DNA from: Patescibacteria group bacterium
GTDB taxonomy: Bacteria; Patescibacteriota; Patescibacteriia; UBA10025; JAHIVO01
Direction of reading: 5' to 3'
Assembly: GCA_028718605.1 (NCBI GenBank)
Contig: JAQULM010000001.1
Coordinates: 413,719 to 477,718 of the forward strand
DNA: 64,000 nt
Under the pieces are notes generated by a model. The model was not told the DNA's origin, made no database searches, and saw only the letters and a program-made list of their open reading frames with translations. Every line of letters begins with the position of its first letter. Within the stretch, counting starts at the first letter, position 1. A program made the position numbers and the translations under genes. Shown here in pieces: positions 2,030 to 25,017 of this stretch.

Positions 2030-3508
2030 TCAATCAAGATTATTGCAATCCAAGGGCAGGCTATCGTTCCAGGTGTATTTTCCCGGTGCTGAACCTGGGA
2101 GATTTGAATTAACAATCTCGTCATGCGCTGCCTTGACCTTGATGACATAATTCCTCGTTTCCGCATATCCAGGATTCTTCACACACTCCCACCACGTCTG
2201 GCCGGCGCAGTCGACACTCGAGCAGTTCGCGCCGCGGCCGCCGTTGTATGCAGCGCTGATATACCGCCACGCACGCTCCAGGCATGCCGCATCACTTGCC
2301 GCGCATTTCCCACCATCCTGGCAACTCGTCAGGTCAGGTTCGCACTTCGCCGTCCGTCCGCTCTTGTATGTCGATTTTAGTGCGCATGTATAAACAAACA
2401 AATCTCTGAGATATTTGCCAGAAATTGTAATATTCGTAGCTGGGTCTTTCAATCCGTCGCACGTGATGCCCGTCTGGTACTTCTGGGCTGTAGCGGGCAT
2501 GAGTTGCATGAGACCGCATGCGCCGGCAGGCGACGTAAGGCCCGGCCTGCCCGAGGATTCAACCAGCATGATTGCCTTAAACCAGTTGCGATCCAGACCG
2601 TTCTTGGTTGCGGTATACGTCAAGCACCCGTCATATTTACCGACATTTGCCGATACGACAACACCTGATGACTTGGGGGTTACTTCCTGATTTTCAAGTG
2701 CTGAAACGCCGCGCGTGACTGCTTCCACGGATAGTTTTCCGAATTCCACAAGCCGCGGGCTAATGAATAAAAGTATTGAATATGATCCGAGCGCAATAAG
2801 GAGGCCCATGAGCGCACCGGTGATATTGTCTTTCGCTTCAGACAGCTTCTGGGGGTTGCCGAATGAAACCACGTACTTCACCCCGCCGTACATCCCCATC
2901 ACCGTCGCAAGGATGCCAACGACGCCTGTAAAATAAACGTATAATGCGACGATATATTCACCAAGCGTCAATCCGGTGACGACAATCGGCACGCCTCGAT
3001 TGAACGTTCCGGATCCGGGGATTGTGATGTTTGGCGTAAAGAGGATGCGTTTAGGCGCTTCATCCTTTGACAAATCACCTGCGGCAACAATCGCCGCCTG
3101 GCGATCCCACTCAATGCACTGTTCGACAAGGGGACATTCTTTTGGATTTGGCGTACAGGTCGGCTGGCATGGCGGTGTATACCCGCTTGCCTTGACGCAG
3201 CTTCCGATTTCTTCAGAGCCGCCTGGCGGTAGGCATACACAACATTTCATATTGCTCTGCTCGACGATTTTGCATTTTTCATAGTTATCGCAAGATCCAG
3301 GATACGCCATACCGTATCCTGACCCCATCGTAGTACAATCGGCTAGATCGCGATCATTGAGTGGAATGCACTCCCCCTGCTCAGCGCCAATACAACATCG
3401 GTCGCTTGCTCCGTATTGCGCTTGCGCCCCTGCTGGAAGAGGCAATGCAAATATAACCAGAGCACACAGTGGGACGATCTGGGAAATTGATCTGATGGTT
3501 GTGCGCAT
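2030..3508 (-). CDS. Secreted Cys-rich protein with a pilin-like two-helix hydrophobic hairpin and a C-terminal lytic transglycosylase (SLT, VirB1-like) domain
   Basis: Signal peptide (LCALVIFALPLPAGAQA); Cys-rich residues 35-135; hydrophobic hairpin YVYFTGVVGILATVMGMYGGVKYVVSFGNPQKLSEAKDNITGALMGLLIALGSYSILLFI (nt 2765..2950); SLT catalytic motif AIMLVESSGRPG...ACGLMQLMPATAQ (nt ~2129..2596). Confidence 0.6.
   Translation of the reverse strand: MRTTIRSISQIVPLCALVIFALPLPAGAQAQYGASDRCCIGAEQGECIPLNDRDLADCTTMGSGYGMAYPGSCDNYEKCKIVEQSNMKCCVCLPPGGSEEIGSCVKASGYTPPCQPTCTPNPKECPLVEQCIEWDRQAAIVAAGDLSKDEAPKRILFTPNITIPGSGTFNRGVPIVVTGLTLGEYIVALYVYFTGVVGILATVMGMYGGVKYVVSFGNPQKLSEAKDNITGALMGLLIALGSYSILLFISPRLVEFGKLSVEAVTRGVSALENQEVTPKSSGVVVSANVGKYDGCLTYTATKNGLDRNWFKAIMLVESSGRPGLTSPAGACGLMQLMPATAQKYQTGITCDGLKDPATNITISGKYLRDLFVYTCALKSTYKSGRTAKCEPDLTSCQDGGKCAASDAACLERAWRYISAAYNGGRGANCSSVDCAGQTWWECVKNPGYAETRNYVIKVKAAHDEIVNSNLPGSAPGKYTWNDSLPLDCNNLD
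2765..2950. repeat. Copy 1 of a ~150-190-nt repeat (~83% nt identity) encoding the pilin-like hydrophobic hairpin
   Basis: Aligned with 5562..5762 on the same strand; blocks such as tttcgcttc, agcttctgggggttgccgaa, ccgccgtacatccccatcac and ggatgcc..acgac are identical. Confidence 0.7.
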
Positions 3509-3512
3509 GTGC

Positions 3513-4781
3513 TTACTTTATCTGAATGGAATATACATTCGACGTATTCGCATCGATAAAATTCAAGTGTTTTTCATCTGCCGTCAGGAACACAGACGAT
3601 ACCGTATAATCACGCTGTCCGTCGTCAAACGCGGGTACGGCCAGCACCGTTGAGGTACCGGTGTTTGTATCAATTCGGTACATGACATCATTCGTATTCG
3701 TCGCTGTTTCTGGAACCAGGCCACTGCCCTCCGGCAGGCTCTGGGGCACCGCGCAATATGCAGCATTTTCGAGCTTCGCGAACGCGCACTTCGTCGACCA
3801 CGTGCGCAAACCGAGCCGCATATGGTTCGCGCCCGTCATATCACCTGATGAATCAACGAGATACAGCACCGGCTGGAAATCAGATTCGCTCGTAAACACG
3901 CTGTACAGGAGCTGTGTACCATCGGCAGACCATGTGCCTTCGAAACCGCGGCCATACGTCACGACGGATTTAAAATTTTCGCCAAAAAGCCCGATAGGAT
4001 ACACTTCCTGCGCTGTCGCATCGTTTGATTCGCGGTATAGGGCGAGTACCTGGCCGTTTGGGGACCAATTCACGTCTACATCTCTCTCTTTATCGCCGAT
4101 CGGCTCAATAAGCTGCACTTCGGACCCGTCTGATTTTGAATAAGCGAGCCAGCGGTCACCCTCATCATCCGATAAATTTTTGAAGCCGATCTTCGTTCCT
4201 GTTGGGTCAAACTCCGTATCATCCCATGTTTTCGGGAGCGTCACCTGCGTCTCATTCTCAAAATCATACACAATCTTGCTGTCGTCCGGGAATGTGATGA
4301 TTGCTTTATCCTGGGCTGGGGACCAATCAATCTCTTCGGCTTCAGGAAATGCCTTGTCCGACATTTCTGTTGCATTCCCGTTTTCATCGATAGTATAAAA
4401 CTTGCCCCGCCGCTCATCATAGTAACGCATGCCTTTACCACTCAACGCAGGCTCCGCGGCTTTTACACTCCGTGACACTGCGGGTGTTGCGGTGGTTTCG
4501 CCGCCTCCAGCTATCGGCGTCACTCCGCCGGCGTTCACATTCTGAAGTGTCGGAATATTCACTGGAGCATTTGTGTTCGCAACATTCACCCGGTTCATGT
4601 TTCCGGTCCCATTAATTGATGGCAAGTTCCCGTTCAGAGCGCCATTGGTGGGTACATTCACGTTCTCATTTTCATTACCTGGCGCGAAAACATCTCTGCC
4701 GATAACAAAGTAAATGAGGGCGCCGAGTGCGATGATGAGAACAATAAAAGCGATGATTAAAAGTACGCGCTTGGATTGCAT
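3513..4781 (-). CDS. Membrane-anchored PD40/TolB-like beta-propeller protein with an Asn-rich linker
   Basis: N-terminal TM helix (LLIIAFIVLIIALGALIYFVI), an N/T/G-rich low-complexity linker, then repeats of the WSPNGQ..LAL / WSADGTQLLY type typical of PD40 propeller blades. Confidence 0.5.
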   Translation of the reverse strand: MQSKRVLLIIAFIVLIIALGALIYFVIGRDVFAPGNENENVNVPTNGALNGNLPSINGTGNMNRVNVANTNAPVNIPTLQNVNAGGVTPIAGGGETTATPAVSRSVKAAEPALSGKGMRYYDERRGKFYTIDENGNATEMSDKAFPEAEEIDWSPAQDKAIITFPDDSKIVYDFENETQVTLPKTWDDTEFDPTGTKIGFKNLSDDEGDRWLAYSKSDGSEVQLIEPIGDKERDVDVNWSPNGQVLALYRESNDATAQEVYPIGLFGENFKSVVTYGRGFEGTWSADGTQLLYSVFTSESDFQPVLYLVDSSGDMTGANHMRLGLRTWSTKCAFAKLENAAYCAVPQSLPEGSGLVPETATNTNDVMYRIDTNTGTSTVLAVPAFDDGQRDYTVSSVFLTADEKHLNFIDANTSNVYSIQIK

Positions 4782-4892
4782 ATAGTATAGTATTTATAAT
4801 TTTTAATGAAGCACATACCCAAAGATTGGGGAGTCGATCGTATACGATTCAATAATTCTTTTTCTGCCGATTCAACATTCGGCGCATCAATT

Positions 4893-6011
4893 CTAATAGC
4901 AACGGGCTCCCTGAAATGCGCCAAGCAAATCTGGATCTCCTGGTTTCATGTCCTCGGCCGTAAAAATATGGTATCCGTACTTCTCTTCGCCGCCAAACAG
5001 TATTAAGCAGCTCTTCTTATCGCCTTCGCACTCTTTACCAATCACCAACTTACCAGTAGGCCATGCACCTTTGGCAATATATCCGCATGGCTCATTTCTT
5101 GTTACATGAGCATCACTTGTTTCCCCCTCATAATAGATCGGCCACGATTTAAATGCTCGAATCTCCTTACCCGCATCATTCGACATCGCAATACAAATCT
5201 CATCATCACTAGAATGCACGCCTTGGCATTCATCCTTGCCGTCTTTGTCCCAAATAAAGCCGCACGATTGGTATATTCGCTCCATGCAAAAATTCATGCC
5301 TTCCCACTGTGCCGTGCACCGGGGAATGCCGGTAAACGGATCCCGCACACAATATTGCTCCTTAAGCTCGCAATCAGTGCCCTTGTAATAACAGCGTTTG
5401 CCTTTTAAATTGCCAGCCGAGGTGATTGTGCCCTCTGTGCCACAGGTTTCCTGAGGCAACGGCGGGTCTACGACCAAGCCTTGGCTGACATACTCTTCGC
5501 AAAAATCTTCTACCTGTTGAATTTTACCAACATCAAGCGTCCCCAATATCGTCAGATTTGGATTAATAAAATACAGGATGCTGTACGACCCGAGCCCGAT
5601 CAGGAGACCCATAAGGGCGCCAGTAATCGTATCTTTCGCTTCGGATAGCTTCTGGGGGTTGCCGAACGAGATCACGTACTTTACGCCGCCGTACATCCCC
5701 ATCACGGTCGCCAGGATGCCGATGACACCCATAAAATAAATGTACAAGCCGGCAATATAGCAGCCCATATTCTTTACGTAGTGCCCGGTTGCGGTGCCAT
5801 CGCCGGTCGCCAGATCAATGGTAACATTGGGTATGGCGATATTGACACGGATCGCACTCCCATCGTTCACGTCAGTCTGGGTAATCGCACAACTCGGATT
5901 AAACGTCGTAAGCCATGTTTGCGCGCTCGCTAAAAGCGGTGCGGACACAAGCACGACCGCAATGATCAATCCCATGAATTTTCCTGCTTTTATCTTTTTC
6001 TCGGCGCGCAT
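4893..6011 (-). CDS. Secreted Cys-rich protein with a pilin-like hydrophobic hairpin (paralog of the hairpin in 2030..3508)
   Basis: Signal peptide; hairpin YIYFMGVIGILATVMGMYGGVKYVISFGNPQKLSEAKDTITGALMGLLIGLGSYSILYFI (nt 5562..5762) is nearly identical to the one in 2030..3508; C-terminal domain has many Cys. Confidence 0.5.
   Translation of the reverse strand: MRAEKKIKAGKFMGLIIAVVLVSAPLLASAQTWLTTFNPSCAITQTDVNDGSAIRVNIAIPNVTIDLATGDGTATGHYVKNMGCYIAGLYIYFMGVIGILATVMGMYGGVKYVISFGNPQKLSEAKDTITGALMGLLIGLGSYSILYFINPNLTILGTLDVGKIQQVEDFCEEYVSQGLVVDPPLPQETCGTEGTITSAGNLKGKRCYYKGTDCELKEQYCVRDPFTGIPRCTAQWEGMNFCMERIYQSCGFIWDKDGKDECQGVHSSDDEICIAMSNDAGKEIRAFKSWPIYYEGETSDAHVTRNEPCGYIAKGAWPTGKLVIGKECEGDKKSCLILFGGEEKYGYHIFTAEDMKPGDPDLLGAFQGARCY
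5562..5762. repeat. Copy 2 of the hairpin-encoding repeat
   Basis: See copy 1; the flanking domains of the two host genes are unrelated. Confidence 0.7.
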
Positions 6012-6056: not shown

Positions 6057-6728
6057 CTACTCGTGTCCCTGTGACGGCAAGAGGTCATTGATGTTAATAT
6101 TTGTGTTTGTCGAATTTGTATTTGCAGAAGGCGCTGCTGGTGTTATGCCTTCGCTGCCCCAGGTCGCTTCATCGACGAGCCAGGAGTTGCCTTCCTTCAA
6201 AAACTGAAGCTCGATATCCTGGTAGTACGTACCCTTGGCCGTGCCCTGCTCCGCACGCTGAGTGCTCAAAACGACATTTGCTCTCGTACCCGCAATTTCT
6301 ACGTCCTTCGTCGAAACAACCTTGGTGAACACCGAAGCAAACGCAGTTTCGCCGCGAGCAAGCTGCACGCGGATAAAGTCTTCGGAAACACTCTGCATCG
6401 TCGCAGTCATGTACGGCCGCAGGTCCAGAATATTCTGATATTTCGCTTCGCTGGAATAGCTCCCGTATCGTTCAGTAAAAAAATTCGCGAGCCTGACGAG
6501 CGTCAGTTCTTCGGGATCCGCGTTTGTATTTTGCCCCGGGACTGCTGTGTTCACCGTTGAATTCACGACTGGCACGGCACCGTTGGTATTCGTAACGGGG
6601 GCGGTATTATTCGTCGGTGTGTCGCCGTCCCTGAAAAACTGCCACCATACAAAAAATGCAATCACGAGAACGGCGCCCAGAGCGATAAGGATGATAATAA
6701 AATTTTTCCGCTTCTGTTCTTGATCCAT
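6057..6728 (-). CDS. Bitopic membrane protein with an Asn/Thr-rich linker (possibly a VirB8-like NTF2-fold periplasmic domain; speculative)
   Basis: N-terminal TM (FIIILIALGAVLVIAFFVWWQFF), an N/T-rich linker, and a ~130-aa C-terminal globular domain. It sits directly downstream of the VirB4-like gene. Confidence 0.4.
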   Translation of the reverse strand: MDQEQKRKNFIIILIALGAVLVIAFFVWWQFFRDGDTPTNNTAPVTNTNGAVPVVNSTVNTAVPGQNTNADPEELTLVRLANFFTERYGSYSSEAKYQNILDLRPYMTATMQSVSEDFIRVQLARGETAFASVFTKVVSTKDVEIAGTRANVVLSTQRAEQGTAKGTYYQDIELQFLKEGNSWLVDEATWGSEGITPAAPSANTNSTNTNININDLLPSQGHE

Positions 6729-6766: not shown

Positions 6767-8668
6767 CTACTGTTGCTGTTGCTCTTCTTGCTCTTCCTGA
6801 GATTGCTCAAACTCCTTTTTCGCCTGCTCAATCTCCAAGAGCTGCCGCGGGTCGGACGTGATGATCTGGTCCTCAGTGTACGATGCCACAACCTTGATTG
6901 CCGCATGTTTCGCACCAGCAAAGAATATGCCTTCGCCGACTCCGCACTCGAGCAATAAATATTTTTCCCCTTCGGTGAGGAGGAATGTTTTTGCGATGAG
7001 ATCGATGGAGGCTGGCGACTGCTTCATCAGGAGCTGGATTGCGGAATTCGTCACGATCGCCTGGCCATACGGCGAACGGAGAAAGTCATTCACGTCCTGG
7101 GTAATCGTCGTAACGCCGAGATAGTATTTTCGGCAGCGCTTCACGAGGGCGTAAATGAACTTCGCCGACTCTTCCTGCTGCATAAGCCACCATGCTTCGT
7201 CGATTACCATGATGCGTTTTTTTAGCGCAGAACGCACGGTATTCCAGATATACGATACGATAAGGGAAATGCCGATCGGCTTCAACTCATCCTCCAGGTC
7301 ACGAACCGAGAAGACAACAAGCTGGTTGTTCAGTTCAACGTTGGTCGGATTATTCAGTAAACCGGCAAACGTGCCTTCGGTGTACTTTTTCAGGCGCGTT
7401 ACCAGCTCTTCGGCGCCAACCATGCCCTCAAGAACTTCTTCAAAATCCTTAAAGAGCGGCGGTTCAACGCGCGTTAAGTCTGCATCCGCAGTAATATCTT
7501 TCTTCGCGTACGTTTCGATGAGCGCGCGGTCAATGATAGAATCTTCCTCGTGGGTAAAAGTACCGAGCATCAAGCGCAGGAGGCCTTTTAGGGTGATCAC
7601 GGCGGAACGGATGATATCGGCGGTCTTTTCGTCTTTCCTGGTCGGCCGAGGCAGGTCAAATGGATTGATTTTGCTTTCTGAGCTCAATGAGATATTGATA
7701 TAGGTACCACCGACAGCGTCAGACAAATACTTATACTCCATTTCAGGATCAATGACGATCACGTCCGTACCGAGCATCATGCTCCGCAAAATTTCAAGCT
7801 TGACCGCGTAACTCTTGCCGGCGCCGGAAGTAGCGAATACTACGCTGTTTGCATTCTGCAGGCTAAACCGGTCAAAAAGAATCAAGCTGTTGTTGTGGCG
7901 ATTAATGCCGTAGAGAATGCCGTTATCGCTCGTTAGTTCCGAGGAAATAAACGGAAATGACGATGCGCATGGCGATGAACTCATATTGAATCCGATTCCG
8001 AGCTCATCTTCGGCGATCGGGAGCGTCGAGGTGAATCCCTGCTCGGCCTGGTAAAATACGCGCTTCGTATACACGAGCCGCGACCCGAAGAATGATTCAA
8101 CCTTCTCGGTAATTTTATCCAAATCTTCCTTCGACTTTGCGTACACTGTGATGTACAGCGCGTACTGGAAAAACCGCTCAACACCCTGCGTCAGGTCATC
8201 CCGTAATTTCTCGATATCACGGAGTGCCGTCTCGCGAATCGGGTCACGCGGCGCGCCCTTTTCCGCGTCAGCTAAAATCTGGGCTTCGAGGGTGCCTACT
8301 TTGTTCCGGAGCTGCTTCAGAATCACCTCAGCACCGATCGGGTAGAAAAACATCGATATGTCGAGCGGCACGTTGAGATTGATAATCGGCGCAAACCACC
8401 CAACGCGGATATATCGTGGGTACGTGACCACAAACATCGTACGGACAAACTGCGAACCAAGCTCAAGATAACGGGACTCGATCTTCATTGCAGCGGGCGC
8501 GATCAGGTCGCGGACCGTCACGACACCGCGGCGGTATACCTTTTCGGCCTCGATCAGGGTTTTTTTCTCCTCCAGCTGCTCCTGCTTCAAACGCTCCTGC
8601 TCTTCGGGAGACAGATCAGGAGCCGCCTCGGTCGGGATTGCCTTTCTGGATTTAAATAGCTCTACCAT
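6767..8668 (-). CDS. Type IV secretion ATPase of the VirB4/TrsE/PrgJ family
   Basis: N-terminal region typical of Gram-positive VirB4-like proteins (VTVRDLIAPAAMKIESRYLELGSQFVRTMFVVTYPRYIRVGW); Walker A VVFATSGAGKSYAV; Walker B/DEAW motif IMVIDEAWWLM. Confidence 0.8.
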   Translation of the reverse strand: MVELFKSRKAIPTEAAPDLSPEEQERLKQEQLEEKKTLIEAEKVYRRGVVTVRDLIAPAAMKIESRYLELGSQFVRTMFVVTYPRYIRVGWFAPIINLNVPLDISMFFYPIGAEVILKQLRNKVGTLEAQILADAEKGAPRDPIRETALRDIEKLRDDLTQGVERFFQYALYITVYAKSKEDLDKITEKVESFFGSRLVYTKRVFYQAEQGFTSTLPIAEDELGIGFNMSSSPCASSFPFISSELTSDNGILYGINRHNNSLILFDRFSLQNANSVVFATSGAGKSYAVKLEILRSMMLGTDVIVIDPEMEYKYLSDAVGGTYINISLSSESKINPFDLPRPTRKDEKTADIIRSAVITLKGLLRLMLGTFTHEEDSIIDRALIETYAKKDITADADLTRVEPPLFKDFEEVLEGMVGAEELVTRLKKYTEGTFAGLLNNPTNVELNNQLVVFSVRDLEDELKPIGISLIVSYIWNTVRSALKKRIMVIDEAWWLMQQEESAKFIYALVKRCRKYYLGVTTITQDVNDFLRSPYGQAIVTNSAIQLLMKQSPASIDLIAKTFLLTEGEKYLLLECGVGEGIFFAGAKHAAIKVVASYTEDQIITSDPRQLLEIEQAKKEFEQSQEEQEEQQQQ

Positions 8669-8673: not shown

Positions 8674-9363
8674 TTATTCGAGATTCAGCTTATTTATATC
8701 ATCCAAGCGCTGCTGGTCATATGTATCGGGATTGTACGTATTGTAGTACAGCTCAATCAACCCCTGCGTATCAAGGACGGCCGCTTTGAGCCCGATTGAA
8801 CTCAGTCCATCGATGATGTATTCCAACCGCTTCGCAAGTTCGATGCGGTTCTTCTCAAACTTTTTCTGCTTGATGCTGATAACAGTAGTTGGCGACGCGG
8901 CTTCCTTCAGTCGCGCAAGGAAACCTTTTGACCGGATTGATCCGCCGGTATACGGCACAATAATATAAAACCGTTTGCTCATAATATCGGCGAGCGACAC
9001 AAGCTCGGCTACATACTGGCGATACTCACGCGTCTGGACTTTCAGAAGTTCGTTTGTCTGCTCCTTCTCGATCGCTTTCAAGCGGTCAAGGTAGTCATCG
9101 ATATTCAGTTTGCGTGACTGGATGACGATTTGGAGCGGAAAATCAAGCGTATTGAGAAACTGAATATACCCCTGGATGACCGCGTTTTGTTCGTCTTCGG
9201 ACTTCAGCGCGAAATTGATGGACGAAACGAGAATGATGCCGCGAAGCGTACCGTCCTTGAGAATAACGGTATCGTCCCGTATCTCGAGGATCGGCAAATA
9301 CTGCTGCGTCGATGGCCGATGCAGCGGCTTCCTAATTTTATCCTGCTGTTTCTTCTCTGCCAT
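8674..9363 (-). CDS. Hypothetical T4SS-associated protein (resembles the N-terminal domain of VirB4-family proteins)
   Basis: ORF lies 5 nt upstream of the VirB4-like gene; the segment YLPILEIRDDTVILKDGTLRGIILVSSINFALKSEDEQ is reminiscent of VirB4 N-termini. I chose the start at the second Met (MAEKK) to avoid a 41-nt overlap with the upstream gene. Confidence 0.45.
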   Translation of the reverse strand: MAEKKQQDKIRKPLHRPSTQQYLPILEIRDDTVILKDGTLRGIILVSSINFALKSEDEQNAVIQGYIQFLNTLDFPLQIVIQSRKLNIDDYLDRLKAIEKEQTNELLKVQTREYRQYVAELVSLADIMSKRFYIIVPYTGGSIRSKGFLARLKEAASPTTVISIKQKKFEKNRIELAKRLEYIIDGLSSIGLKAAVLDTQGLIELYYNTYNPDTYDQQRLDDINKLNLE

Positions 9364-9379
9364 AAAAGCGTCCGTTGGT

Positions 9380-9814
9380 TTATTCCTGCTCAGGCGGCTC
9401 AATTTCTTCGTTATATGCACCGCCAGTATCCACGACGAGTGAAAGCTGGTTCAGCCGGGACAGGGTCAATTTCTTCTTCGGAACCGGCGGTTTAGGCTTC
9501 TCTTGTTTTTCCTCTTTGATGCGCTGTATGACTATTTCCTTGTTCCAAGTCTTCAGAATCGGGCGCCGCGCGGTCTGCAGCATATTGAGAAGAAAATAGT
9601 GGAACGGCCGGCCATTAATTTTCAGGAAAGCGAAAACGCCGGTCAGCGCAAAAATCATTATCCCCTCGATTGCTGCCATCCAGAATGTGGCGAGCTTGAA
9701 TACGATAAAAATCAAGCCGGCGCCGACTAAAAAGATAAGAAACTGCCGGACCGTCAACGGACCGATAATCTTTCCTTCAACGTCCAGGAATTGGGGCACA
9801 ACAAACTGCTGCAT
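9380..9814 (-). CDS. PrgI/VirB3-like small membrane protein
   Basis: 144 aa; N-terminus MQQFVVPQFLDVEGKIIGPLTVRQFLIFLVGAGLIFIV followed by a second TM, which matches the PrgI-family architecture. It is positioned just upstream of the VirB4-like ATPase, as VirB3-VirB4 usually are. Confidence 0.5.
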   Translation of the reverse strand: MQQFVVPQFLDVEGKIIGPLTVRQFLIFLVGAGLIFIVFKLATFWMAAIEGIMIFALTGVFAFLKINGRPFHYFLLNMLQTARRPILKTWNKEIVIQRIKEEKQEKPKPPVPKKKLTLSRLNQLSLVVDTGGAYNEEIEPPEQE

Positions 9815-9819: not shown

Positions 9820-11205
9820 TTACACGCCGAGCGTGCTATTTAAATTATTGATCGCGAGGAATTCTTCCATAAGAAGCGTCGGATGATTTTCCTGTGCGCG
9901 TCTCGTGAGTATCTGCTCAATTGACCGATTCGTGTCAATGCTCTCTCGGCCGATATCAATATAAAGTTTGAATACGGGCGCGAGTTTCCATGCGCCAACC
10001 CCCTCGCTCCGGCGCTGATATGAATCTTCTTCGAGGAGATCAATTTTCTCCAACACTTTCTCCGCGGACTCCTGTGGATTTGTGCCGAGCCTTCTAAATT
10101 CCTTCAAATCAATTTCCCCAATTTCCTCAACAGGACCGACAATGTGCATCGGTTGGCGAATATCTACCATCTGGGGACGGTCAGGCTCGATCGATGACGG
10201 GATTGGTGTGCGCTTCGGCAGCTCTTCGGGTGAACGCGCGTAAAGCGATACGGCTTCTGCGCTCATGGGTTGGACCGGCTGTGGCGCCGGTACGGCAGGC
10301 GTTTCCTCAATGGGCACTGAACGCGCTGGGGCAACTGGCTCGACAGGCAACGGAGTTACGGATTGAAGAGCAGGTGGTTTGACTGGTGCAACCTGCTGTG
10401 CCGGCTCTGGCGGGATCTGTTCGACAGAAGGAACAAATGGTTTTGGAAGTTCTTTCTTCACTTCGCCGGGTTTCGGAACAAACGCCGGTGGCGTTGGTGC
10501 AAACATGCCTCCCTGCCCGACGAGGTCCACGCCCCATTTCTTGAGGTTCGCCCGTGGTGCTTCTGCCGTTCGAGGCTGCGCGGCGACGGCGACGCCCGCC
10601 TCATGGAACACAGCTGCCCTTTGTTCCGCAAGGTTGAGCACACGATCCGCCTCGGCTGATGATAACTCTATTCCGCCAATTTTTTTCGGCCGCATGAGCA
10701 CTTCCCGCGCCTCAATGGACGTCCTGATATCACGCAGGCGCGATTCGAGTACCTTTGAAAACCTCTTTATCAAGAGATCGTCTTCGAGCCGTACGCCGCT
10801 CTCACGAAGGATTTCCTCAATGGCTGTATTGAGGGCTACGGTGGCAGCCAGCTGCGGAGCTCCGCCCATTGCTTCGAGATCACGGGCATGCTGCTCGATT
10901 TCCTCAATATCCTCCGGCTCCAAGTTGAGCGGCGCCTTCCCTGCCGACATAACGGGCATTGGCCGCGGTGCTATTGCCGCGGATGGGGCGGGTTTCTGCG
11001 GCACAAACAGAGGGGGTGTAACAGGCGGCATGGGAGGTTTCGGAAGCGGTTCCGGAGCAGGCGGCTCACGGCGGGCGGGAACCGCGGTTTTCGGTACTGT
11101 TACGTCAACGATCTGCCCGTCCTCGACTTTTTTGAATTGGCCGCTTTTATCGCGTATCAAAAAACTCTGCGATAGATCAGAATTGTTTGGATCATTCACG
11201 TCCAT
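9820..11205 (-). CDS. Pro-rich hypothetical protein (first gene of the T4SS-like operon)
   Basis: 461-aa ORF with PxxP-rich segments and a conserved-looking C-terminal ~100 aa. There is no TM and no recognisable catalytic motif. Confidence 0.45.
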   Translation of the reverse strand: MDVNDPNNSDLSQSFLIRDKSGQFKKVEDGQIVDVTVPKTAVPARREPPAPEPLPKPPMPPVTPPLFVPQKPAPSAAIAPRPMPVMSAGKAPLNLEPEDIEEIEQHARDLEAMGGAPQLAATVALNTAIEEILRESGVRLEDDLLIKRFSKVLESRLRDIRTSIEAREVLMRPKKIGGIELSSAEADRVLNLAEQRAAVFHEAGVAVAAQPRTAEAPRANLKKWGVDLVGQGGMFAPTPPAFVPKPGEVKKELPKPFVPSVEQIPPEPAQQVAPVKPPALQSVTPLPVEPVAPARSVPIEETPAVPAPQPVQPMSAEAVSLYARSPEELPKRTPIPSSIEPDRPQMVDIRQPMHIVGPVEEIGEIDLKEFRRLGTNPQESAEKVLEKIDLLEEDSYQRRSEGVGAWKLAPVFKLYIDIGRESIDTNRSIEQILTRRAQENHPTLLMEEFLAINNLNSTLGV

Positions 11206-12151
11206 GCAAGAGAGTAGTTATTGGTCTCGTTTGAGTAATATATATCTTTTTCTTCTCGATAGCCCACTCGATATCCTGAGGGCATCGATAATGCGCCTCA
11301 ATCCGCTTGCACATGCGGGCGAGCTCGACTATCTGCGAACCAGTGAGGACTTGCGCGTCCTGGAGTTTCCGGGGTAGGCGGACAGTTTTGGTGCCGGCAC
11401 CCGGTTTCCGGATAATCATTTTCTCCTGTGTCGAAACGTTAACGTCAAGAATTACTTCATCTTCTTTGTCGATAATGTACGTATCAGGGGTAATCATGCC
11501 CGATACAATCGCTTCGCCGAGGCCGAATCCTGCTTCGATAACCATTTGTTTCCGGTCCTTCGTGACCGGGTGGGCAGTGAAGCAGACCCCGGATACCTGC
11601 GAATTCACCATTTTCTGCACAACAACTGCGACGCTGACTTTTGTTTTGTGAAGTTTCCTTTCGTACCGATAGAAAATCGCCCGGGGCGTGAATAGGGATG
11701 ACCAGCAGCTTTTAACTGCCCCAAATAGCTTCTGCTGAGTAATAAATAAATATGTTTCGAGCTCGCCTGCCCAGGATGCGATTGAAGAATCCTCTGCGGT
11801 TGCCGAGGACCTGACGGCAACGTATGGGGCGCGGAGTTTTCGGAACATTTGCAAGACTTCTTTCTTGAGGTCACCCGGGAAACGGGCGTCATGAATCAAA
11901 TCGCGTATCTCATGAGAAAAACGGTCAACCGACGTAAGGTCCCGATGATTCAGGCGGTCAAGCCCTGCGTCTATCTCAACACCAATATCGGTCTCCTCGA
12001 GAAAACGTTCAAATGCAGGCGCGAGAATCACAAACCCCGGCGGTACCGGGATCCCACTCTGTACCATTTCGCCAAGATTCGCTCCTTTTCCGCCAGCGAC
12101 ACTTACACTTTTTTTTGATAATTCCGAGAAAGAAGATACGTACGTAAACAT
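11192..12151 (-). CDS. Stand-alone PEP synthase / pyruvate phosphate dikinase N-terminal ATP-grasp (PPDK_N) domain protein
   Basis: Motifs VSVAGGKGANLGEM and VAVRSSATAEDS are the PPDK_N/PEP-synthase ATP-binding signatures. The 319 aa are roughly the ATP-grasp domain alone, with no swivel or substrate domain. Confidence 0.8.
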   Translation of the reverse strand: MFTYVSSFSELSKKSVSVAGGKGANLGEMVQSGIPVPPGFVILAPAFERFLEETDIGVEIDAGLDRLNHRDLTSVDRFSHEIRDLIHDARFPGDLKKEVLQMFRKLRAPYVAVRSSATAEDSSIASWAGELETYLFITQQKLFGAVKSCWSSLFTPRAIFYRYERKLHKTKVSVAVVVQKMVNSQVSGVCFTAHPVTKDRKQMVIEAGFGLGEAIVSGMITPDTYIIDKEDEVILDVNVSTQEKMIIRKPGAGTKTVRLPRKLQDAQVLTGSQIVELARMCKRIEAHYRCPQDIEWAIEKKKIYITQTRPITTLLHGRE

Positions 12152-16331: not shown

Positions 16332-17852
16332 CTATTTTCTTATTCGCACCACTCCCTCGTTCCCATCAACCTCAACAATCTGCCCGTCTTTCAGAATTTT
16401 TGTTGCCATGCGCAAGCCGATAATGCCCGGGATGCCGGCTTCACGTGCTAATGTTGCCGGGTGCGAGGTAATGCCCGGCCCGCCGTCGCAAATCAAACCT
16501 GAAGCGATTGACAGGACGTGGGTAAACACCGGCGTTGCCTGGATTGTCGCGATGATGTCTCCCTTCTTTACCTTATGGAACGCGTCCGGATTAATCACAA
16601 TCTTGACCGGCCCGCGCGCGGTGCCGGGAGAAACAGGCGTACCGTACAGTGCCTTTACTTTTCTATCAATTTTAACAAAAAAATCAAAATACTGCTGTGC
16701 CTGTTTTCCCATTAACACGGCTGTCTTCCTGCGGAAGTTATGGAACACGACCAAGCGGATGCGCTCGTTTACGATTGAACTCATGTCGATGCCGTGCACG
16801 AGCATCGGCCGCACTTCCTGCGTAAGCAAATGCCTCGCCTGGCGAATCGATAGCACACCCCGTTTGGCAATCTCGATGAGGATCGGGTCGTATAAATGGA
16901 GCGTCTGGGACACGATCCACTTCCGCAGCTCCTTGTAGTAAATTGCCTCGCGCATTGTTTTGAACAGCCGCTGGTGCTTCGTGTCAATCTTCAGCGTTCG
17001 GTAAATCGCACGGACATCCCGCTCTAGTTGCTGTTCGTCGCGGATCATTTTTTTGAGCGCTGCATGTGGGTCACTGGCGAGAAGTTTTTTAAACCGTACA
17101 ATGAAATCTTCCTGGGATAAAATCGGGTCATCGTAGTCGCGCGTAATCCAGAAAAACCTGCGTACGTGCTTCATAAAAAGCGCTCGCAGGGCTGTGTCTG
17201 CCCGAATTGACTTAAGGACATTTCCGGCGTGGCGCTGCTTGAAAATTGCCCTCCAGCGGGAATTCTGTGCAATGCGCTGGCACACGGCGAGTGCTGCTTT
17301 ACGCTCCTGCCAGTTAATCATCGCGCGCTGTTCGGTGATCAGCCGGTCAATCGCCTTGCCGGCGCGGATCGGGTCTGGCTCACGGGATGCAATATACTCC
17401 CGTAAGTATTGAAAAAAGTAGTTTTCCATCGCCAACACGGGGAAATAGTGGGAATACACCTGCCGGTACCGCTTATCGTACTCCTCGTGCAGCGCCGCCA
17501 GCTTCGCATTGTGCATCGTCTTCAACGCTGCCGGCTTATTGTTTGCGCGCAGGAAGCGGTAGAACGAACGGCCAAAGGCCTTTTGCTTTTTCGCGAGTTT
17601 CATGAACAGCGCCGGGTCGGCGAGAACGCGCTTCATTACTCCCATACCCACGCGTTCATGGTCGTCCTTGTCAAAAAAAGCGTAAAAAACGTTCTCGGTA
17701 AAGAACACGATGCTCTGCTGATACGCATACCCGATCACCTGTTTCATTTCATTGCACACTGTCTCCATGGAGATATAGTTCGGAAACGGACTGACCCGCT
17801 GGCGCTGGGACAGCTGGAACCAGTGCAGTTTTTTATTTAACCGTATGTTCAT
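16332..17852 (-). CDS. PEP-utilizing-enzyme swivel (phospho-His) domain protein with a divergent helical N-terminal domain (RPH/PEP-synthase-like, lacking ATP-grasp)
   Basis: C-terminal GTPVSPGTARGPVKIV...GDIIATIQATPVFTHVLSIASGLICDGGPGITSHPATLAREAGIPGIIG is the PEP-utilizers mobile-domain signature with the catalytic His; the N-terminal ~400 aa is all-helical with no ATP-grasp motifs. Confidence 0.8.
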   Translation of the reverse strand: MNIRLNKKLHWFQLSQRQRVSPFPNYISMETVCNEMKQVIGYAYQQSIVFFTENVFYAFFDKDDHERVGMGVMKRVLADPALFMKLAKKQKAFGRSFYRFLRANNKPAALKTMHNAKLAALHEEYDKRYRQVYSHYFPVLAMENYFFQYLREYIASREPDPIRAGKAIDRLITEQRAMINWQERKAALAVCQRIAQNSRWRAIFKQRHAGNVLKSIRADTALRALFMKHVRRFFWITRDYDDPILSQEDFIVRFKKLLASDPHAALKKMIRDEQQLERDVRAIYRTLKIDTKHQRLFKTMREAIYYKELRKWIVSQTLHLYDPILIEIAKRGVLSIRQARHLLTQEVRPMLVHGIDMSSIVNERIRLVVFHNFRRKTAVLMGKQAQQYFDFFVKIDRKVKALYGTPVSPGTARGPVKIVINPDAFHKVKKGDIIATIQATPVFTHVLSIASGLICDGGPGITSHPATLAREAGIPGIIGLRMATKILKDGQIVEVDGNEGVVRIRK

Positions 17853-18454
17853 AATGCTCTCGTAATGGCACGCCGCATCTGTTTGAAGTTTTTATATAAA
17901 ATCGTGTTTACGCCCATTTTGGAGGGTTCAACCAGGTTTGCCGCTTGATCATCGATGTAAACTATCTCAGATGGCTTTACCCGAAAACGGCGACAAATGT
18001 ACGCGACGGTCTTCTTGCTCGCCTTGGGAAGGTTCAGCGACTGCGTATTGATACTGTCGTCAAAATACTTCTTGAAACCGAGCGCTTTATCAAAATACGC
18101 AAACCACGCCACCAGGTTCTTGCTCAGGATAATGCACGTGTACCCGCGATGGCGCAAGCGAGTGACGTACTGCACGACTGATCTACGAAGTTCCGTATGC
18201 CGCAAGTGCCATGCCCTCATCGCGCGCCAGTCCTGGCGCCACCCGAGTTCTCGAATTGGGCGAATCCAACCCTGGCGTTCGGTGATCTTATTTTCGGCAA
18301 TTAAGTTGAAATACTTCGTATATAAAACGTTAAAAACCGCTTGCCATGGGGTTCCGTGGATTTTCGCGAAATGCCGGCTTGTTTTTTTATGGTCACCGAT
18401 CACGGTAACGCCGTTGAAGTCAAAAATGATTAATTGTACGTGTTTCTTGTTCAT
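17849..18454 (-). CDS. HAD-fold hydrolase-like protein with non-canonical motif I (DxN)
   Basis: LIIFDFNGVTV (motif I with the second Asp replaced by Asn), motif IV-like YIDDQAANL. Its ends overlap both neighbours by 4 nt. Confidence 0.65.
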   Translation of the reverse strand: MNKKHVQLIIFDFNGVTVIGDHKKTSRHFAKIHGTPWQAVFNVLYTKYFNLIAENKITERQGWIRPIRELGWRQDWRAMRAWHLRHTELRRSVVQYVTRLRHRGYTCIILSKNLVAWFAYFDKALGFKKYFDDSINTQSLNLPKASKKTVAYICRRFRVKPSEIVYIDDQAANLVEPSKMGVNTILYKNFKQMRRAITRAL

Positions 18455-19974
18455 AATTTTTTCATTATCCCCCTCGTCGCGTCCACTGCAACGCGACAGC
18501 CTGTTTTAAGAATGGTGACGGCTCTGGGCACCCCGACAATACACGGAACATTGAGCTCCCGCGATACGATTGCCGCATGGCACGTGAGGCCGCCCTCCTC
18601 GGTGATAATCGCCGCAGCCTGGCGCATCGCGGGCAACAGCGTCGGATTGGTCGCATACGAAACGAGGATTTCGCCGCGCTTGAAATCCTGCGCATCAGCA
18701 AGGCTGTTGACGGTACGTGCGGCTCCCCGCGCTGTCCCATTGCATGCAGGCGTCCCCGTGAGCTTCGAACGGTTCCGGCAGGGAGGCATCTGTATATTAT
18801 CACGGATAAATTTTTCAGCAGCGTTGCCGCTCACAATCCACCACGCACCCCGCTGGTACCTGCATATGAACAGCTGGCGGCGTCCGTTGATTTCCTTGAG
18901 ATCGGGCGCGCCCGTCTTGAGCGCTTGTGCAACCTCCTCGTGGGTCATGTACCGCACCTGGTCAACGCTCATATGGAGCCGCCCCGCAATTTCGCGGAAC
19001 AGCTTATGCATATGCCAACACGACTTGAACTGGTGCGCCTTGCGGAACGGCTGGAACCAGTATGCAAACTGGGCGATAGCGGCAAACCGGCGCTCCTGCG
19101 GGGAAAAATGTAGGTCTTTCATAATCCGCTGTTGCGTTCGGGCGAGCACCGCGGGTTCCGCTTTTTTCGTTTCATATTCCGCGCGGACATTCCCGCGGCG
19201 CAGAATATCCTGCACGAACATGATGAAATCCGCAATGTCCATCACCGGCCCTTCCCAATTGTGGAACAGCCAATGGTATGCGCGCTGTTGGCGCCGTAGC
19301 TCGCGGTACATGCGCGGATACTGCTTGCTGATTATCTCCTGAACGGCTGGGGCTGCAGTGGCCCTGAACACGCGGCTGAGCTTGGGCTGTTTGCTGACTG
19401 CATAACTTAATTTCAGGATATCGAGCGTCTGGCGGTAAAAGATCGTTGGCTTGGCCGGGACGGATAGGGCATGGAAGTATTCCGCCGCTTTTTTTGGCGC
19501 ACGGCGCTTCAGTATCTCCTTGATCGCGCCACTGAAATACGCTCGCTCGCCGAACTCAAAATTAAAAACGATATTCCCGTACGCGTAGCACGGCTCATCG
19601 AGCACGACGAAACGGCTGTAGAGCTTCGCGAGCTGTGCGTTGGCCATGGCACCGAGATCCTGCTTCCATATACGCTGGTAGGTAAATACATTCAACCGCC
19701 TGAGTGACGCCAGCGCGTTCAATTTCGTTTTTTCGACAAACCCCGGCTGGCGGACGGCCAATTGCTGGCAATGGTCTTGGAACCGATGCCAATCCGCGGG
19801 CGCCATAAAGTATTCCTGCACCTTTTCCCGGTTCACCATGCCGATTGGCGCGACCATGCCGACGTACTTCTGGTAATTCTTGCTCCAGAGCCGCACGAGG
19901 ATGAACTGGGGAAACACGCTGGTCTGCATGTCCCGCGCAATATACTCAAATTTCTTTCGTGTATGGTTTGGCAT
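18451..19974 (-). CDS. PEP-utilizing-enzyme swivel domain protein (paralog 2)
   Basis: C-terminal GTPACNGTARGAARTV...GEILVSYATNPTLLPAMRQAAAIITEEGGLTCHAAIVSRELNVPCIVG. I chose the start at Met21 (MPNHTRK) to avoid overlapping the upstream gene; the first ATG in the frame is at 20034. Confidence 0.75.
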   Translation of the reverse strand: MPNHTRKKFEYIARDMQTSVFPQFILVRLWSKNYQKYVGMVAPIGMVNREKVQEYFMAPADWHRFQDHCQQLAVRQPGFVEKTKLNALASLRRLNVFTYQRIWKQDLGAMANAQLAKLYSRFVVLDEPCYAYGNIVFNFEFGERAYFSGAIKEILKRRAPKKAAEYFHALSVPAKPTIFYRQTLDILKLSYAVSKQPKLSRVFRATAAPAVQEIISKQYPRMYRELRRQQRAYHWLFHNWEGPVMDIADFIMFVQDILRRGNVRAEYETKKAEPAVLARTQQRIMKDLHFSPQERRFAAIAQFAYWFQPFRKAHQFKSCWHMHKLFREIAGRLHMSVDQVRYMTHEEVAQALKTGAPDLKEINGRRQLFICRYQRGAWWIVSGNAAEKFIRDNIQMPPCRNRSKLTGTPACNGTARGAARTVNSLADAQDFKRGEILVSYATNPTLLPAMRQAAAIITEEGGLTCHAAIVSRELNVPCIVGVPRAVTILKTGCRVAVDATRGIMKKL

Positions 19975-19978
19975 ACCG

Positions 19979-21511
19979 TTATTGTACGCGTTTAATAATG
20001 CCTTTTCCCGCATCAACGGAAACCTTATCATCATCTTTTAAAACCTTGGTGGCAATTTTCGTGCCAATGACGCACGGCACTCCCAATTCCCGTGAAACAA
20101 TTGCCGCATGGGAGGTAATGCCGCCGGCGTCCGTAATGATCGCCCGCGCCCTGCGCATTGCGGGGACCAATTCAGGCGATGTTGCCGGTGAAACAATGAT
20201 ATCGCCAGCATTAAATTTCGGCAAATCACTCGCGTTCCGCAATATTTTTACGTGGCCTTCTGCCTTTCCGGCGCAGGCGCACATGCCGTGGAGCTCCTGG
20301 ACCGAGCCCTTCACCTGTAGCGAACGGTTAATCTCGGAAATAATTGCACGTGCTTCCCCGAACGGCAGCACCTTCCAGCGCATACCGTCAATCCACACAA
20401 CGGTTTGCTGCGCACGTCTGCGTAGATACGGGCGTGACAATTTTCCGGCGATCGCCGTGTACATTTCCCAGTGCGATAACGTTTGCGCTTCGGCAAGTGA
20501 AATGCCGAGGCGTTTGCTGATTTCAACAACCAACTCATGTACGAGGTACTGGCACCGCACCATCAGCTTTTTGCGCCAGCGTTTCAGGCCGGCAAGCTCG
20601 CGCAACAGTACGAAAAGTGTGCGGTGCTCCGCGTCGACTCCTGCGCGCTTGAACCACACGACCTGCTGCTGTCGAATGGCCTTATTGGCGGCGATTAAAT
20701 CACGCCGCTTGCGCTGCAGCAATGTTTTGGATAACTTCAGGTGCCGGAAAAAATCGTCAATAGTTTCGGCAAACGGCTTTTTCGGGCCGCTATACCCGTA
20801 CGACAAATATGAAAATCGGCCATGGTACCTCTCCAGCGTGAGTAATAATTCCGGATTCCTGGCCTGGCAATACCGCACGCACGCATCAACCGATTTCCTC
20901 GACGATGCAGGTACGACCTGCCGGAATTTCAAAGCAATCTCAATAAGCTTAATTTCCGTCGTACGGTTCTCGTTCACGCCCGTCGGCGTGGTGAGCACGG
21001 TAAAAATCGTGCCGACGTCATTCGCATACCGTGGCGGCACCGTGCCCTTCAAATACTCGTACAGCGGGCCTGACAGCAGCGGCTCCTCGAATTCCAGTAC
21101 TGTGCCGTACGTGCTCGCCGACAGCGTACGGAGCGCCAGCCCAGTCCAGCGTTCATATATGCGCAACAGTTCTGCGTCGGTCAATGCGGACAGGTCAGCG
21201 CCGGCAACCTGCTGCGAAAAACGTAAAATCAAACGCGCCTGCTGCCGCGTCGTGTGCCACATCCAGCGGAGAAATCGCGGATCCTTCCGCAGCTTCTGGA
21301 GTATCGCCTTTCCTGGCGTGGCAAAGCCGCCCTTCACCACGCATTCGCGGACAGACCGGCCGTGGTACACAAGTGCAATCGGGCCTGCGTGCGCGCCAAT
21401 CCGATTGCACGCCTGCGCCGCGCCGATGTAATACAATGACATGGGGAAATTCGCAGCCGGTTCCTCGTCGAGCTGCACCCACTGCCGATTTTGCCGCCGA
21501 ACAATCGCCAT
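19979..21511 (-). CDS. PEP-utilizing-enzyme swivel domain protein (paralog 3)
   Basis: C-terminal GMCACAGKAEGHVKIL...GDIIVSPATSPELVPAMRRARAIITDAGGITSHAAIVSRELGVPCVIG. Confidence 0.8.
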   Translation of the reverse strand: MAIVRRQNRQWVQLDEEPAANFPMSLYYIGAAQACNRIGAHAGPIALVYHGRSVRECVVKGGFATPGKAILQKLRKDPRFLRWMWHTTRQQARLILRFSQQVAGADLSALTDAELLRIYERWTGLALRTLSASTYGTVLEFEEPLLSGPLYEYLKGTVPPRYANDVGTIFTVLTTPTGVNENRTTEIKLIEIALKFRQVVPASSRKSVDACVRYCQARNPELLLTLERYHGRFSYLSYGYSGPKKPFAETIDDFFRHLKLSKTLLQRKRRDLIAANKAIRQQQVVWFKRAGVDAEHRTLFVLLRELAGLKRWRKKLMVRCQYLVHELVVEISKRLGISLAEAQTLSHWEMYTAIAGKLSRPYLRRRAQQTVVWIDGMRWKVLPFGEARAIISEINRSLQVKGSVQELHGMCACAGKAEGHVKILRNASDLPKFNAGDIIVSPATSPELVPAMRRARAIITDAGGITSHAAIVSRELGVPCVIGTKIATKVLKDDDKVSVDAGKGIIKRVQ

Positions 21512-21516
21512 ACTCC

Positions 21517-22107
21517 CTACGAATACTTTTTTAACAGCAACCTCCCTGCCTCGCGGATACCCTCAATGCGGTAAAAAATAAACTTGTCCTGGGTAGTGAT
21601 GCCCCACTCAAGTATAACATTTTTAAGCGCCAACTTCCGCACTGCCTGCAGTACTGTCGTACGCTGCCCCGGCGTAAGCGTTGCGCGGTCGCCAACGGTG
21701 CTGGCGAGGCGGAGCTTTGCGTCATAATAGTACGCGGCATCTACCTTGCCGTGCCGCATCAGGTCAACAACAGCGCCCTTCACTGTTTCGATAACGGCAC
21801 GGTGCTTTTCAATGAGCAAGGTGCCCGCGCGCTTCCACTTCCACGACGGGTAGACAACGAAAAGTGCCCTGCCACCAAGCTGCTTTTGGAATTTATCGAT
21901 CGTCGAAGGCACCTGGTTTTTTGGCAGCCAATTCGTATAGACATTTTTCCATGCGCCCTTGGTAACGGCAACGGTACGGATCGTCCAACCAACGTAGTCT
22001 TTGATACCGAAAAACTTCTCCAAGTCGCGCGACGTACGGACAAATTCCCACTCCGGGTGGGGCAGTTTTGCGCGGTCAATGAGTTGGAGGCCATGGAGGA
22101 TCGTCAT
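21517..22107 (-). CDS. Hypothetical protein in the swivel-protein operon
   Basis: 196-aa ORF tightly packed between paralog 3 and the second HAD gene; no recognisable motif. Confidence 0.4.
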   Translation of the reverse strand: MTILHGLQLIDRAKLPHPEWEFVRTSRDLEKFFGIKDYVGWTIRTVAVTKGAWKNVYTNWLPKNQVPSTIDKFQKQLGGRALFVVYPSWKWKRAGTLLIEKHRAVIETVKGAVVDLMRHGKVDAAYYYDAKLRLASTVGDRATLTPGQRTTVLQAVRKLALKNVILEWGITTQDKFIFYRIEGIREAGRLLLKKYS

Positions 22108-24373: not shown

Positions 24374-24466
24374 TCACTTCTGCAAATAAAAATCCACCCA
24401 AAAACCTTCGATAGATATCCATTGAAACCATACCCGGATTATGCCGCCGTTTGAAAAATGGTACCC

Positions 24467-25006: not shown

Positions 25007-25017
25007 AACTGATGCCA

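Follow-up and report, generated by a model that had tools for sequence, protein, structure and literature searches.

Two genes in a 64,000-nucleotide stretch of a Patescibacteria group bacterium genome (contig JAQULM010000001.1, positions 413,719 to 477,718; hereafter the window, to which all coordinates refer) encode otherwise unrelated proteins that share a hydrophobic hairpin of the pilin family PF18895. These genes, which we call A and B, lie in a gene cluster for a type IV secretion system (T4SS), and A also carries an SLT lytic transglycosylase domain. We found that the core of the hairpin evolves in concert within each genome that has the pair, while its outer ends remain specific to A or B. 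The reading that we favour on these sequence data, with a probability of about 0.65, is that A and B form a T4SS-linked hairpin pair, whose cores are kept matched by constraint together with episodic gene conversion, and whose hairpin would act as a shared module for recruitment or assembly.

The hairpin block shared by A and B

An earlier note on this DNA had described two nearly identical hairpins, encoded by DNA of about 83% identity and embedded in proteins whose surrounding domains do not align. This description holds well: identity over the span that it considered is 81.5%, the true register being 2800..2950 against 5603..5753, that is, an offset of 2803 and not 2800. The complete block spans 2756..2956 in gene A and 5559..5759 in gene B, both on the minus strand, and comprises 67 codons that align without gaps, with identities of 85% at the amino acid level and 77.1% at the nucleotide level. 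The same hairpin pair was recovered by independent repeat finding, as family D3 (2761-2956 and 5564-5759, 78%). Pairwise alignment by BLASTP joined residues 145-266 of A with residues 47-166 of B (E=4e-37). This alignment includes the only continuation beyond the block, a weak one about 35 residues upstream of the hairpin, with the sequences LFTPNITIPGS in A and IAIPNVTIDLA in B; outside the shared block BLASTP gave nothing significant, and the domains around the hairpins are indeed unrelated. No third copy of the hairpin was detected in the 64-kb window by a six-frame search with a hidden Markov model (HMM). The match between the two hairpins is far beyond chance.

The excess at the DNA level is modest, since the two protein sequences and the codon usage of the window already lead to an expected nucleotide identity of 70.6 +/- 2.3%, compared with the 77.1% observed (P=0.003). 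Thus, the possibility of an artefact of codon bias or low complexity, which the earlier note had raised against itself, fails for the protein-level identity but accounts in part for the identity of the DNA. Over the whole block, the proportion of synonymous differences (pS) is 0.65, equivalent to a synonymous divergence (dS) of about 1.5, and that of non-synonymous differences (pN) is 0.09. An inner tract of 87 nucleotides or 29 codons, at 2831..2917 in A and 5634..5720 in B, stands apart, with 90% nucleotide identity and a pS of 0.38 versus 0.62-0.95 in its flanks. Within this tract 19 synonymous codons are identical where 11.3 are expected (P=0.0007 after scanning windows). In the window, protein conservation accounts for most of the DNA identity; what remains of a signal lies in the 87-nucleotide tract, which is a candidate for an old gene-conversion tract; the last conversion between A and B in the window would be old. 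The last 25 codons of the block (2756..2830 and 5559..5633) show a pS of 0.95, above the saturation level of about 0.75, despite 84% protein identity, although few sites are involved.

Concerted evolution of the hairpin core

To place the pair of the window in its family, we aligned 56 hairpins from the 28 distinct genomes that have two hairpin genes, and compared their identity column by column. The core corresponds to columns 19-70, namely, the second half of the first transmembrane helix (TM1), the loop and most of the second helix (TM2). Mean core identity is 0.74 between A and B of the same genome, compared with 0.49 between A proteins, 0.51 between B proteins and 0.49 across types when these come from different genomes, and in all 28 genomes the cores of A and B are more alike than those of orthologues. 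The hairpin flanks show the reverse, with 0.40 within a genome versus 0.52 and 0.44 for the same type. Single columns illustrate both behaviors: column 30 matches at a rate of 0.93 within genomes and 0.32 between them, and column 12 at 0.07 within a genome versus 0.79 among A proteins. The outer ends thereby keep the signatures of their type, GEYIxAxYVFFV...ILLTINPxLVKF in A and xCYIxGIYRYFAG...ILYFINPNLT in B. Among the 28 genomes, core identity peaks in the window (0.92).

Synonymous positions were then considered. When codons for the same degenerate amino acid are pooled over the cores, 486 out of 1003 are identical between A and B, versus 347 predicted from the codon usage of each locus (z=9.5); as controls, the C-terminal flank gives z=0.7 and the identical fraction between genomes is 0.343. 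Simulations for each genome gave P<0.01 in 11 of the 28, and runs of identical nucleotides reach 38 (locus L007), 34 (L039) and 26 (L002). Both marks by which gene conversion is recognized are present: paralogues of one genome are more alike over a bounded tract whose flanks behave in the opposite way, and synonymous positions are homogenized beyond codon usage, with a modest signal in the window itself. The homogenization in 11 genomes would point to gene conversion in episodes and over short tracts, superimposed on strong purifying selection. The constraint on the hairpin, which the earlier note had proposed as an alternative to conversion, is indeed strong: orthologues with an overall identity of only 40-47% reach 55-67% in the hairpin, where G59 and P75 are invariant and G33, G41, L60, Y67, L70 and L77 nearly so. 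The choice between conversion and constraint is not borne out, as the pattern of the family fits both, with conversion being episodic and confined to the hairpin core.

These data also bear on the possibility that selection alone keeps the pair alike, with both cores fitting the same partner, be it each other, VirB4/PrgI or lipid, by parallel or compensatory substitutions and with no exchange of DNA. Seventeen of the 28 genomes have no synonymous excess though their core identity is 52-83%, which means that DNA exchange is not needed to explain the similarity in every lineage, and the high pS of the block in the window, above all in its last 25 codons, agrees with this view. However, the pooled synonymous excess, with flank controls near expectation, goes against it, and the 11 genomes with P<0.01 and the longest identical runs are hard to obtain without copying. 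Moreover, old conversions followed by synonymous saturation would explain the other 17 genomes equally well. We consider selection alone to be unlikely overall, though it may hold for the 17 genomes without excess.

Family, topology and fold of the hairpin

Both A and B pass the gathering threshold (GA) of PF18895 (T4SS_pilin; 26.6 bits), with 30.5 bits for residues 183-240 of A and 28.0 bits for residues 87-139 of B, and the isolated hairpin scores 36.2 bits. The same family is matched by 30 of 30 hairpins taken from the 28 genomes (best E 1.2e-13). A profile built from the hairpin retrieved 80,717 cluster representatives with E<=1e-3 among 1.84 billion proteins, and reached free-standing PF18895 proteins of 81-151 amino acids from other Patescibacteria with E-values down to 5e-23. 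The hairpins of A and B belong to the PF18895 family, the same as the free-standing pilins of about 120 amino acids of these bacteria.

Some database proteins (P0124, P0125, P0126, P0133, P0137, P0138, P0154 and P0178) contain PF18895-like hairpins in tandem, from 4 to 15 or more per chain, with a period of about 100 amino acids and a length of 1775 amino acids in P0138, and look like 'poly-pilins', that is, pilin arrays joined into one chain. These tandem-hairpin polypeptides suggest side-by-side packing of hairpins.

Regarding topology, hydropathy analysis indicates that A and B each have a probable N-terminal Sec-type signal peptide, followed later by two more predicted hydrophobic helices. 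Every non-membrane segment of both proteins has an even number of cysteines, and the hairpin loop, GGVKYVxSFGNPQKLSEAKD, has three lysines. From the even cysteine counts and the lysine-bearing loop we infer that both proteins have an N-out/C-out topology with a short cytoplasmic loop, which would leave the added domains, namely, the SLT and the cysteine-rich domains, outside the cell.

The earlier note had likened the hairpin to VirB2/TrbC pilins. What stands of this claim is that both proteins pass the PF18895 threshold and that a predicted helix-loop-helix follows a putative signal peptide; what could not be demonstrated is kinship with VirB2/TrbC proper (PF04956), for which there was no significant sequence, profile or fold match. 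First, neither A nor B matches PF04956 at E<=0.1, and six of 30 hairpins do so only below threshold (best E 0.0097); among the best 120 of the 442 proteins found by the hairpin profile, seven also match PF04956. Second, the hairpin profile gave zero matches to PDB sequences even at E<=10, and its alignment by hhalign with VirB2 and F TraA, using sequences checked against PDB, returned a probability of about 1%, i.e., no similarity. Third, the hairpin module of A was predicted by AlphaFold2 (AF2) as a confident two-helix hairpin (residues 6-38 and 43-73 of the model; predicted local distance difference test, pLDDT, 84.9). In the structural comparison that the earlier note had proposed, Foldseek found no match at E<1, and the folds retrieved were all generic helical hairpins. 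With so simple a fold, such comparisons cannot decide on pilin kinship. As a lead only, the hairpins of A and B align below the cut-off of 40 bits with NCBIfam NF045849, the Mbov_0395 family of pilin-like proteins from integrative and conjugative elements (ICEs) of Mycoplasma (22.6 and 23.9 bits, positions 8-76 of 80).

It is thus pertinent to ask whether the hairpin could be merely a membrane anchor for secreted enzymes or adhesins, functionally unrelated to pilins, with the Pfam name being a misnomer. The generic results of the fold searches and the lack of profile similarity to VirB2 or TraA are compatible with an anchor, as is the membrane anchoring of monoderm T4SS hydrolases, for example PrgK and TraG of pIP501 (references in PMC12102498). 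Nevertheless, simple anchors are rarely so conserved as this hairpin, whose core, in addition, evolves in concert between paralogues. The same module occurs as free-standing proteins of about 120 amino acids, as arrays next to virB4 and as tandem repeats, and some members of the family also match TrbC/VirB2. On this balance, the anchor seems to us a rather improbable explanation.

Domain architecture of A and B

The fusion of one cysteine-rich protein to a lytic transglycosylase, noted earlier from the sequence, was confirmed. The SLT domain of A matches PF01464 with 63.1 bits (threshold 21.3; residues 298-427), and in 38 orthologous sequences E317 and S318, the E-S motif with the catalytic glutamate, are invariant, while the AYNGG motif (A419, Y421, N422, G424) is conserved. 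The domain is modelled at pLDDT >90, and its nearest solved sequences are Slt70, MltC and EmtA. All this predicts that the SLT lytic transglycosylase of A is intact. The linker between hairpin and SLT is disordered. In the AF2 model of the whole protein, the N-terminal cysteine-rich domain reaches a pLDDT of only 50-60, too poor for a fold search; its residues C47 and C104 are kept in the 38 orthologues. Orthologues support the long open reading frame (ORF) of A, since they span 95-98% of its length. The NCBI model of this gene (P0001, 406 amino acids) starts 86 codons late and omits 3251..3508, so that the signal peptide and half of the cysteine-rich domain are lost.

Gene B is identical to the NCBI entry 'MAG: pilin [Patescibacteria group bacterium]' (P0052; MAG, metagenome-assembled genome). 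Homologues of B are few, about five in 5.8 billion proteins, versus more than 50 clusters for A, and B-type proteins vary from 331 to 576 amino acids across genomes. The cysteine-rich C-terminal domain of B appears to be fast-evolving. The features of both genes, together with those of their cluster, are included in Table 1.

Table 1. Features of genes A and B and of the surrounding T4SS gene cluster.
Feature	Position	Strand	Description and basis
Gene A	2030..3508	-	ORF, 492 aa; signal peptide, Cys-rich ectodomain, pilin-family hairpin, linker, SLT lytic transglycosylase
A, SLT lytic transglycosylase domain	2099..2641	-	Residues 290-470; PF01464
A, hairpin module	2723..2980	-	Residues 177-262: TM1, loop GGVKYVVSFGNPQKLSEAKD, TM2; HMM match 1.6e-36, hydropathy
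A, N-terminal Cys-rich ectodomain	2981..3415	-	14 Cys, plus pre-hairpin motif LFTPNITIPGS; Cys count
A, signal peptide	3416..3508	-	Residues 1-31 (MRTTIRSISQIVPLCALVIFALPLPAGAQAQ); hydrophobic residues 4-30, then AxA-type site; read from sequence
Membrane-anchored beta-propeller protein, between B and A	3513..4781	-	422 aa; weak PD40 and TolB matches; orthologues in L001-L003 carry Tricorn_N
Gene B	4893..6011	-	ORF, 372 aa; signal peptide, short N-terminal segment, pilin-family hairpin, Cys-rich C-terminal ectodomain
B, C-terminal Cys-rich ectodomain	4896..5519	-	14 Cys by count
B, hairpin module	5532..5774	-	Residues 80-160; HMM match 5.5e-33, hydropathy
Bitopic protein, between VirB4 and B	6057..6728	-	223 aa; no Pfam/NCBIfam match; syntenic 214-225-aa genes in L001-L003
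VirB4-like ATPase, CD1110 (monoderm conjugation) family	6767..8668	-	NF045971 355.5 bits (cut-off 325); PF19044, PF12846
TrsD/TraC-like protein, resembles VirB4 N-terminal domain	8674..9420	-	Sub-threshold NCBIfam TrsD, VirB4_plasma, conju_CD1110
PrgI (VirB3-like) membrane protein	9380..9814	-	PF12666 32.1 bits (GA 27)
Pro-rich protein, head of cluster	9820..11205	-	461 aa; no Pfam/NCBIfam match; syntenic 353-473-aa genes in L001-L003

Distribution and age of the pair

The arrangement of B, beta-propeller gene and A, with B 1.1-2 kb upstream of A, was found in about 25 of the 28 distinct genomes, and the remaining three have adjacent pilin-domain pairs instead. Gene order exactly as in the window is seen for the A orthologue P0002 and the B homologue P0120, which share one 25-kb contig, and likewise for P0003 (A) and P0118 (B). 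A scan of species-representative genomes identified 58 loci spread over numerous lineages of Patescibacteria, among them Kerfeld-, Falkow-, Nomura-, Azam- and Giovannonibacteria, Paceibacteria and Saccharibacteria. The arrangement is ancient and widespread. The fusion of hairpin and SLT is likewise frequent, with both in a single ORF at 59 of 62 loci and the combination of PF18895 and PF01464 in more than 50 database protein clusters. Hence, the earlier remark that such a fusion is not a standard T4SS arrangement is right for classical T4SSs but not for Patescibacteria, where it is common.

Two further observations were made on these loci. In loci of the Saccharibacteria/Paceibacteria type (L047, L048, L049 and L053), the pilin-SLT gene heads arrays of small pilin genes (91-146 amino acids), with up to seven consecutive hairpin genes in L049. 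MAG records titled 'uncultured Gammaproteobacteria bacterium' (binchicken assemblies), among them L005, L007, L010, L015, L017, L026 and others, bear a Patescibacteria-type T4SS cluster and are probably mislabelled.

The age of the pair speaks directly to the recent gene conversion or module shuffling that the earlier note had put forward, and to a recent duplication specific to this genome. The core identity of the window, the highest of the 28 genomes, and the 90% identity of the 87-nucleotide tract could be taken as signs of such an event. However, synonymous sites over the block are near saturation, most of the nucleotide identity is expected from the proteins, and distant genomes, whose orthologues are only 38-47% identical, retain the pair in synteny. 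A recent origin is thus largely refuted, and we regard it as very improbable.

The T4SS gene cluster

Genes A and B close a run of co-directional genes on the minus strand, after which RadA and RecG follow, and they lie downstream of virB4 by 3.3 kb and 756 nucleotides, respectively. In Patescibacteria, a VirB2-like pilin is expected near virB4 and components of the FATA type of mating-pair formation (MPF-FATA), and PrgI, a TrsD-like protein and a CD1110-type VirB4 were found in the same operon-like run as A and B. The synteny of this run is preserved in the related loci L001-L003. The VirB4 of the window also matches the model for the ATPase of Mycoplasma ICEs. Syntenic orthologues of the TrsD/TraC-like protein match PF26593 (TraC-like), and the true start of its gene is probably an internal ATG near 9360. 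The cluster corresponds to a chromosomal, relaxase-less, monoderm-type T4SS (single-membrane, Gram-positive-type), as known for the phylum (PMC12102498). The size and topology of the bitopic protein encoded between VirB4 and B would be in keeping with a VirB8/PrgL-like component, a part of the system seldom detected in Patescibacteria by the 2025 survey (PMC12102498).

That the pair could be a prophage-derived or defective lysis cassette, with a holin-like hairpin fused to an endolysin-like transglycosylase, is hardly credible: a two-helix membrane hairpin does lie next to a muralytic domain, and one of 30 hairpins has a weak Phage_holin_8 match, but in A a signal peptide and a cysteine-rich ectodomain precede the hairpin, the location in the VirB4/PrgI cluster beside RadA/RecG is fixed in many genomes, and the neighbourhood in the window has no phage genes.

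Comparison with known systems

PrgK of pCF10, TraG of pIP501, CwlT of ICEBs1 and VirB1 of Agrobacterium are peptidoglycan hydrolases by which T4SSs open the cell wall locally (cited in PMC12102498). Protein A resembles them by its predicted SLT-type domain with a catalytic glutamate, its place inside a T4SS cluster and its putative tethering to the membrane. It differs in that its tether is not a single N-terminal transmembrane helix but a conserved pilin-family hairpin that comes after a cysteine-rich ectodomain; in addition, A has no second domain of the CHAP, LytM or NlpC/P60 type, and the solved SLTs nearest to it are housekeeping enzymes. With VirB2/TrbC (PF04956) and F TraA, A and B share, as predicted features, a signal peptide, a helix-loop-helix hairpin with a short basic loop, and proximity to VirB4. 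Unlike these pilins, which are of about 70-120 amino acids, A and B are of 492 and 372 amino acids and come from a monoderm.

Concerted evolution by gene conversion is known from bacterial paralogues such as tufA and tufB. As in these, and as in the VirB2 paralogue families of Bartonella and Anaplasma cited in PMC12102498, which like A and B are paralogous T4SS pilins, short DNA tracts would be exchanged within a genome. Unlike in those cases, it is a conserved core that is homogenized within otherwise unrelated proteins, with no diversification of surface epitopes, and the ends of the tract coincide with the limits of the module.

Pilin arrays have already been described for Patescibacteria T4SSs (PMC10633639, PMC12102498, PMC12857230). 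A and B share with them the PF18895 family, the vicinity of virB4/prgI and a relaxase-less, monoderm-type T4SS. In contrast, the pilins of the published arrays are small and divergent, with a mean identity of 25% and at most 54% within an array (PMC12102498), whereas A and B are not small free-standing pilins but large fusions with extra domains, whose hairpins are 85% identical and 92% so in the core. In the 2025 survey of these systems (Quinonero-Coronel et al., PMC12102498), PF18895 matches were counted as VirB2, VirB1 and VirB2 were treated as separate components, and it was concluded that most VirB2-bearing genomes are without VirB1. We found no mention of a pilin-SLT fusion, of PF01464 or of gene conversion in the context of the Patescibacteria T4SS, either in PMC12102498 or in the rest of the searchable literature.

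Other features of the window

Outside the T4SS cluster, several features were recorded. First, a leucyl-tRNA synthetase (54036..57212, minus strand, 1058 amino acids) has a Ham1p_like domain, of the inosine triphosphatase (ITPase) type, inserted at residues 245-386, within the span of tRNA-synt_1 and preceding the Pfam match for the editing domain (residues 447-638). Second, a run of five or six ORFs of about 500-550 amino acids occupies 16332..29746 (minus strand); the three that were scanned each end in a PEP-utilizers mobile domain, and five carry a copy of the repeat family D1. Third, a PPDK_N-only protein (11192..12151, minus strand) adjoins the T4SS cluster, with conserved synteny in relatives. 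Fourth, two adjoining giant ORFs, both on the minus strand and both probably surface proteins, have 2082 amino acids and no Pfam match (33255..39503), and 3589 amino acids with CBM_4_9 and dockerin domains (39529..50298). Fifth, a wall hydrolase with LysM and Peptidase_M23 domains (57471..58748, plus strand) is a second muralytic enzyme of the window, unlinked to the T4SS cluster.

Discussion

In the reading that we favour, A and B would be Sec-exported hairpin proteins whose domains lie outside the cell. The hairpin would be the module by which the same T4SS machinery recruits or assembles both proteins, and their hairpins may pack against each other or against one shared partner; packing through a shared interface would require the two cores to stay alike. 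This likeness may have been renewed by episodic conversion of the core, followed by synonymous decay under strong purifying selection. A would supply a VirB1-type wall-cutting activity tethered to the machine, while the cysteine-rich ectodomains of A and B may be surface or host-contact modules.

Several observations weigh against this reading. The 17 genomes without synonymous excess have been discussed above. In addition, the control of the N-terminal flank is not entirely flat (z=2.4), and the null expectation for codon usage, which was taken from about 20 kb of flanking ORFs, may misjudge codon choice in membrane proteins. The topology, in turn, was drawn from hydropathy and charge alone. 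Finally, neither the window nor the +/-10 kb around the related loci yielded a plain small pilin, so that a pilus would need bulky subunits unless the major pilin is encoded elsewhere; no small pilin from the same 651-kb contig appeared among the best 120 of the 442 profile matches.

The only cultivated model, S. epibionticum, requires its T4SS and pilin genes for epibiotic growth (Wang et al. 2023, PMC10633639), and the role of the 'pilins' of Patescibacteria in a monoderm is an open question (PMC12857230). In this context, it is tempting to speculate that the PF18895 hairpin polymerizes, as a pilus or ring, and that the matched cores let A and B assemble together into a T4SS surface structure that displays a peptidoglycan-cutting enzyme together with variable cysteine-rich binding domains. 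We hold this scenario to be doubtful. If true, however, it would describe an enzyme-armed, conjugative-type filament by which a monoderm episymbiont breaches the wall of its host. The concerted cores would then be the genomic footprint of lattice compatibility, and the poly-hairpin proteins, with up to 15 or more units, a covalently pre-assembled lattice.

The architecture reported here is the ordinary part of our results, as it belongs to a known system and is visible in databases; the novelty lies in the fusion to a VirB1-like function and in cores that evolve in concert. The hairpin emerges as a highly combinable module, which is found on its own, in fusions with enzymes or adhesin-like domains, and in many repeats per chain. 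The fusion of a VirB1-type function to a pilin module is very common, and this may explain the VirB2-bearing genomes without VirB1 of the 2025 survey (PMC12102498). The matching of cores in a lineage-wide pair of pilin-domain proteins, in turn, would provide a testable signature of a shared assembly interface.

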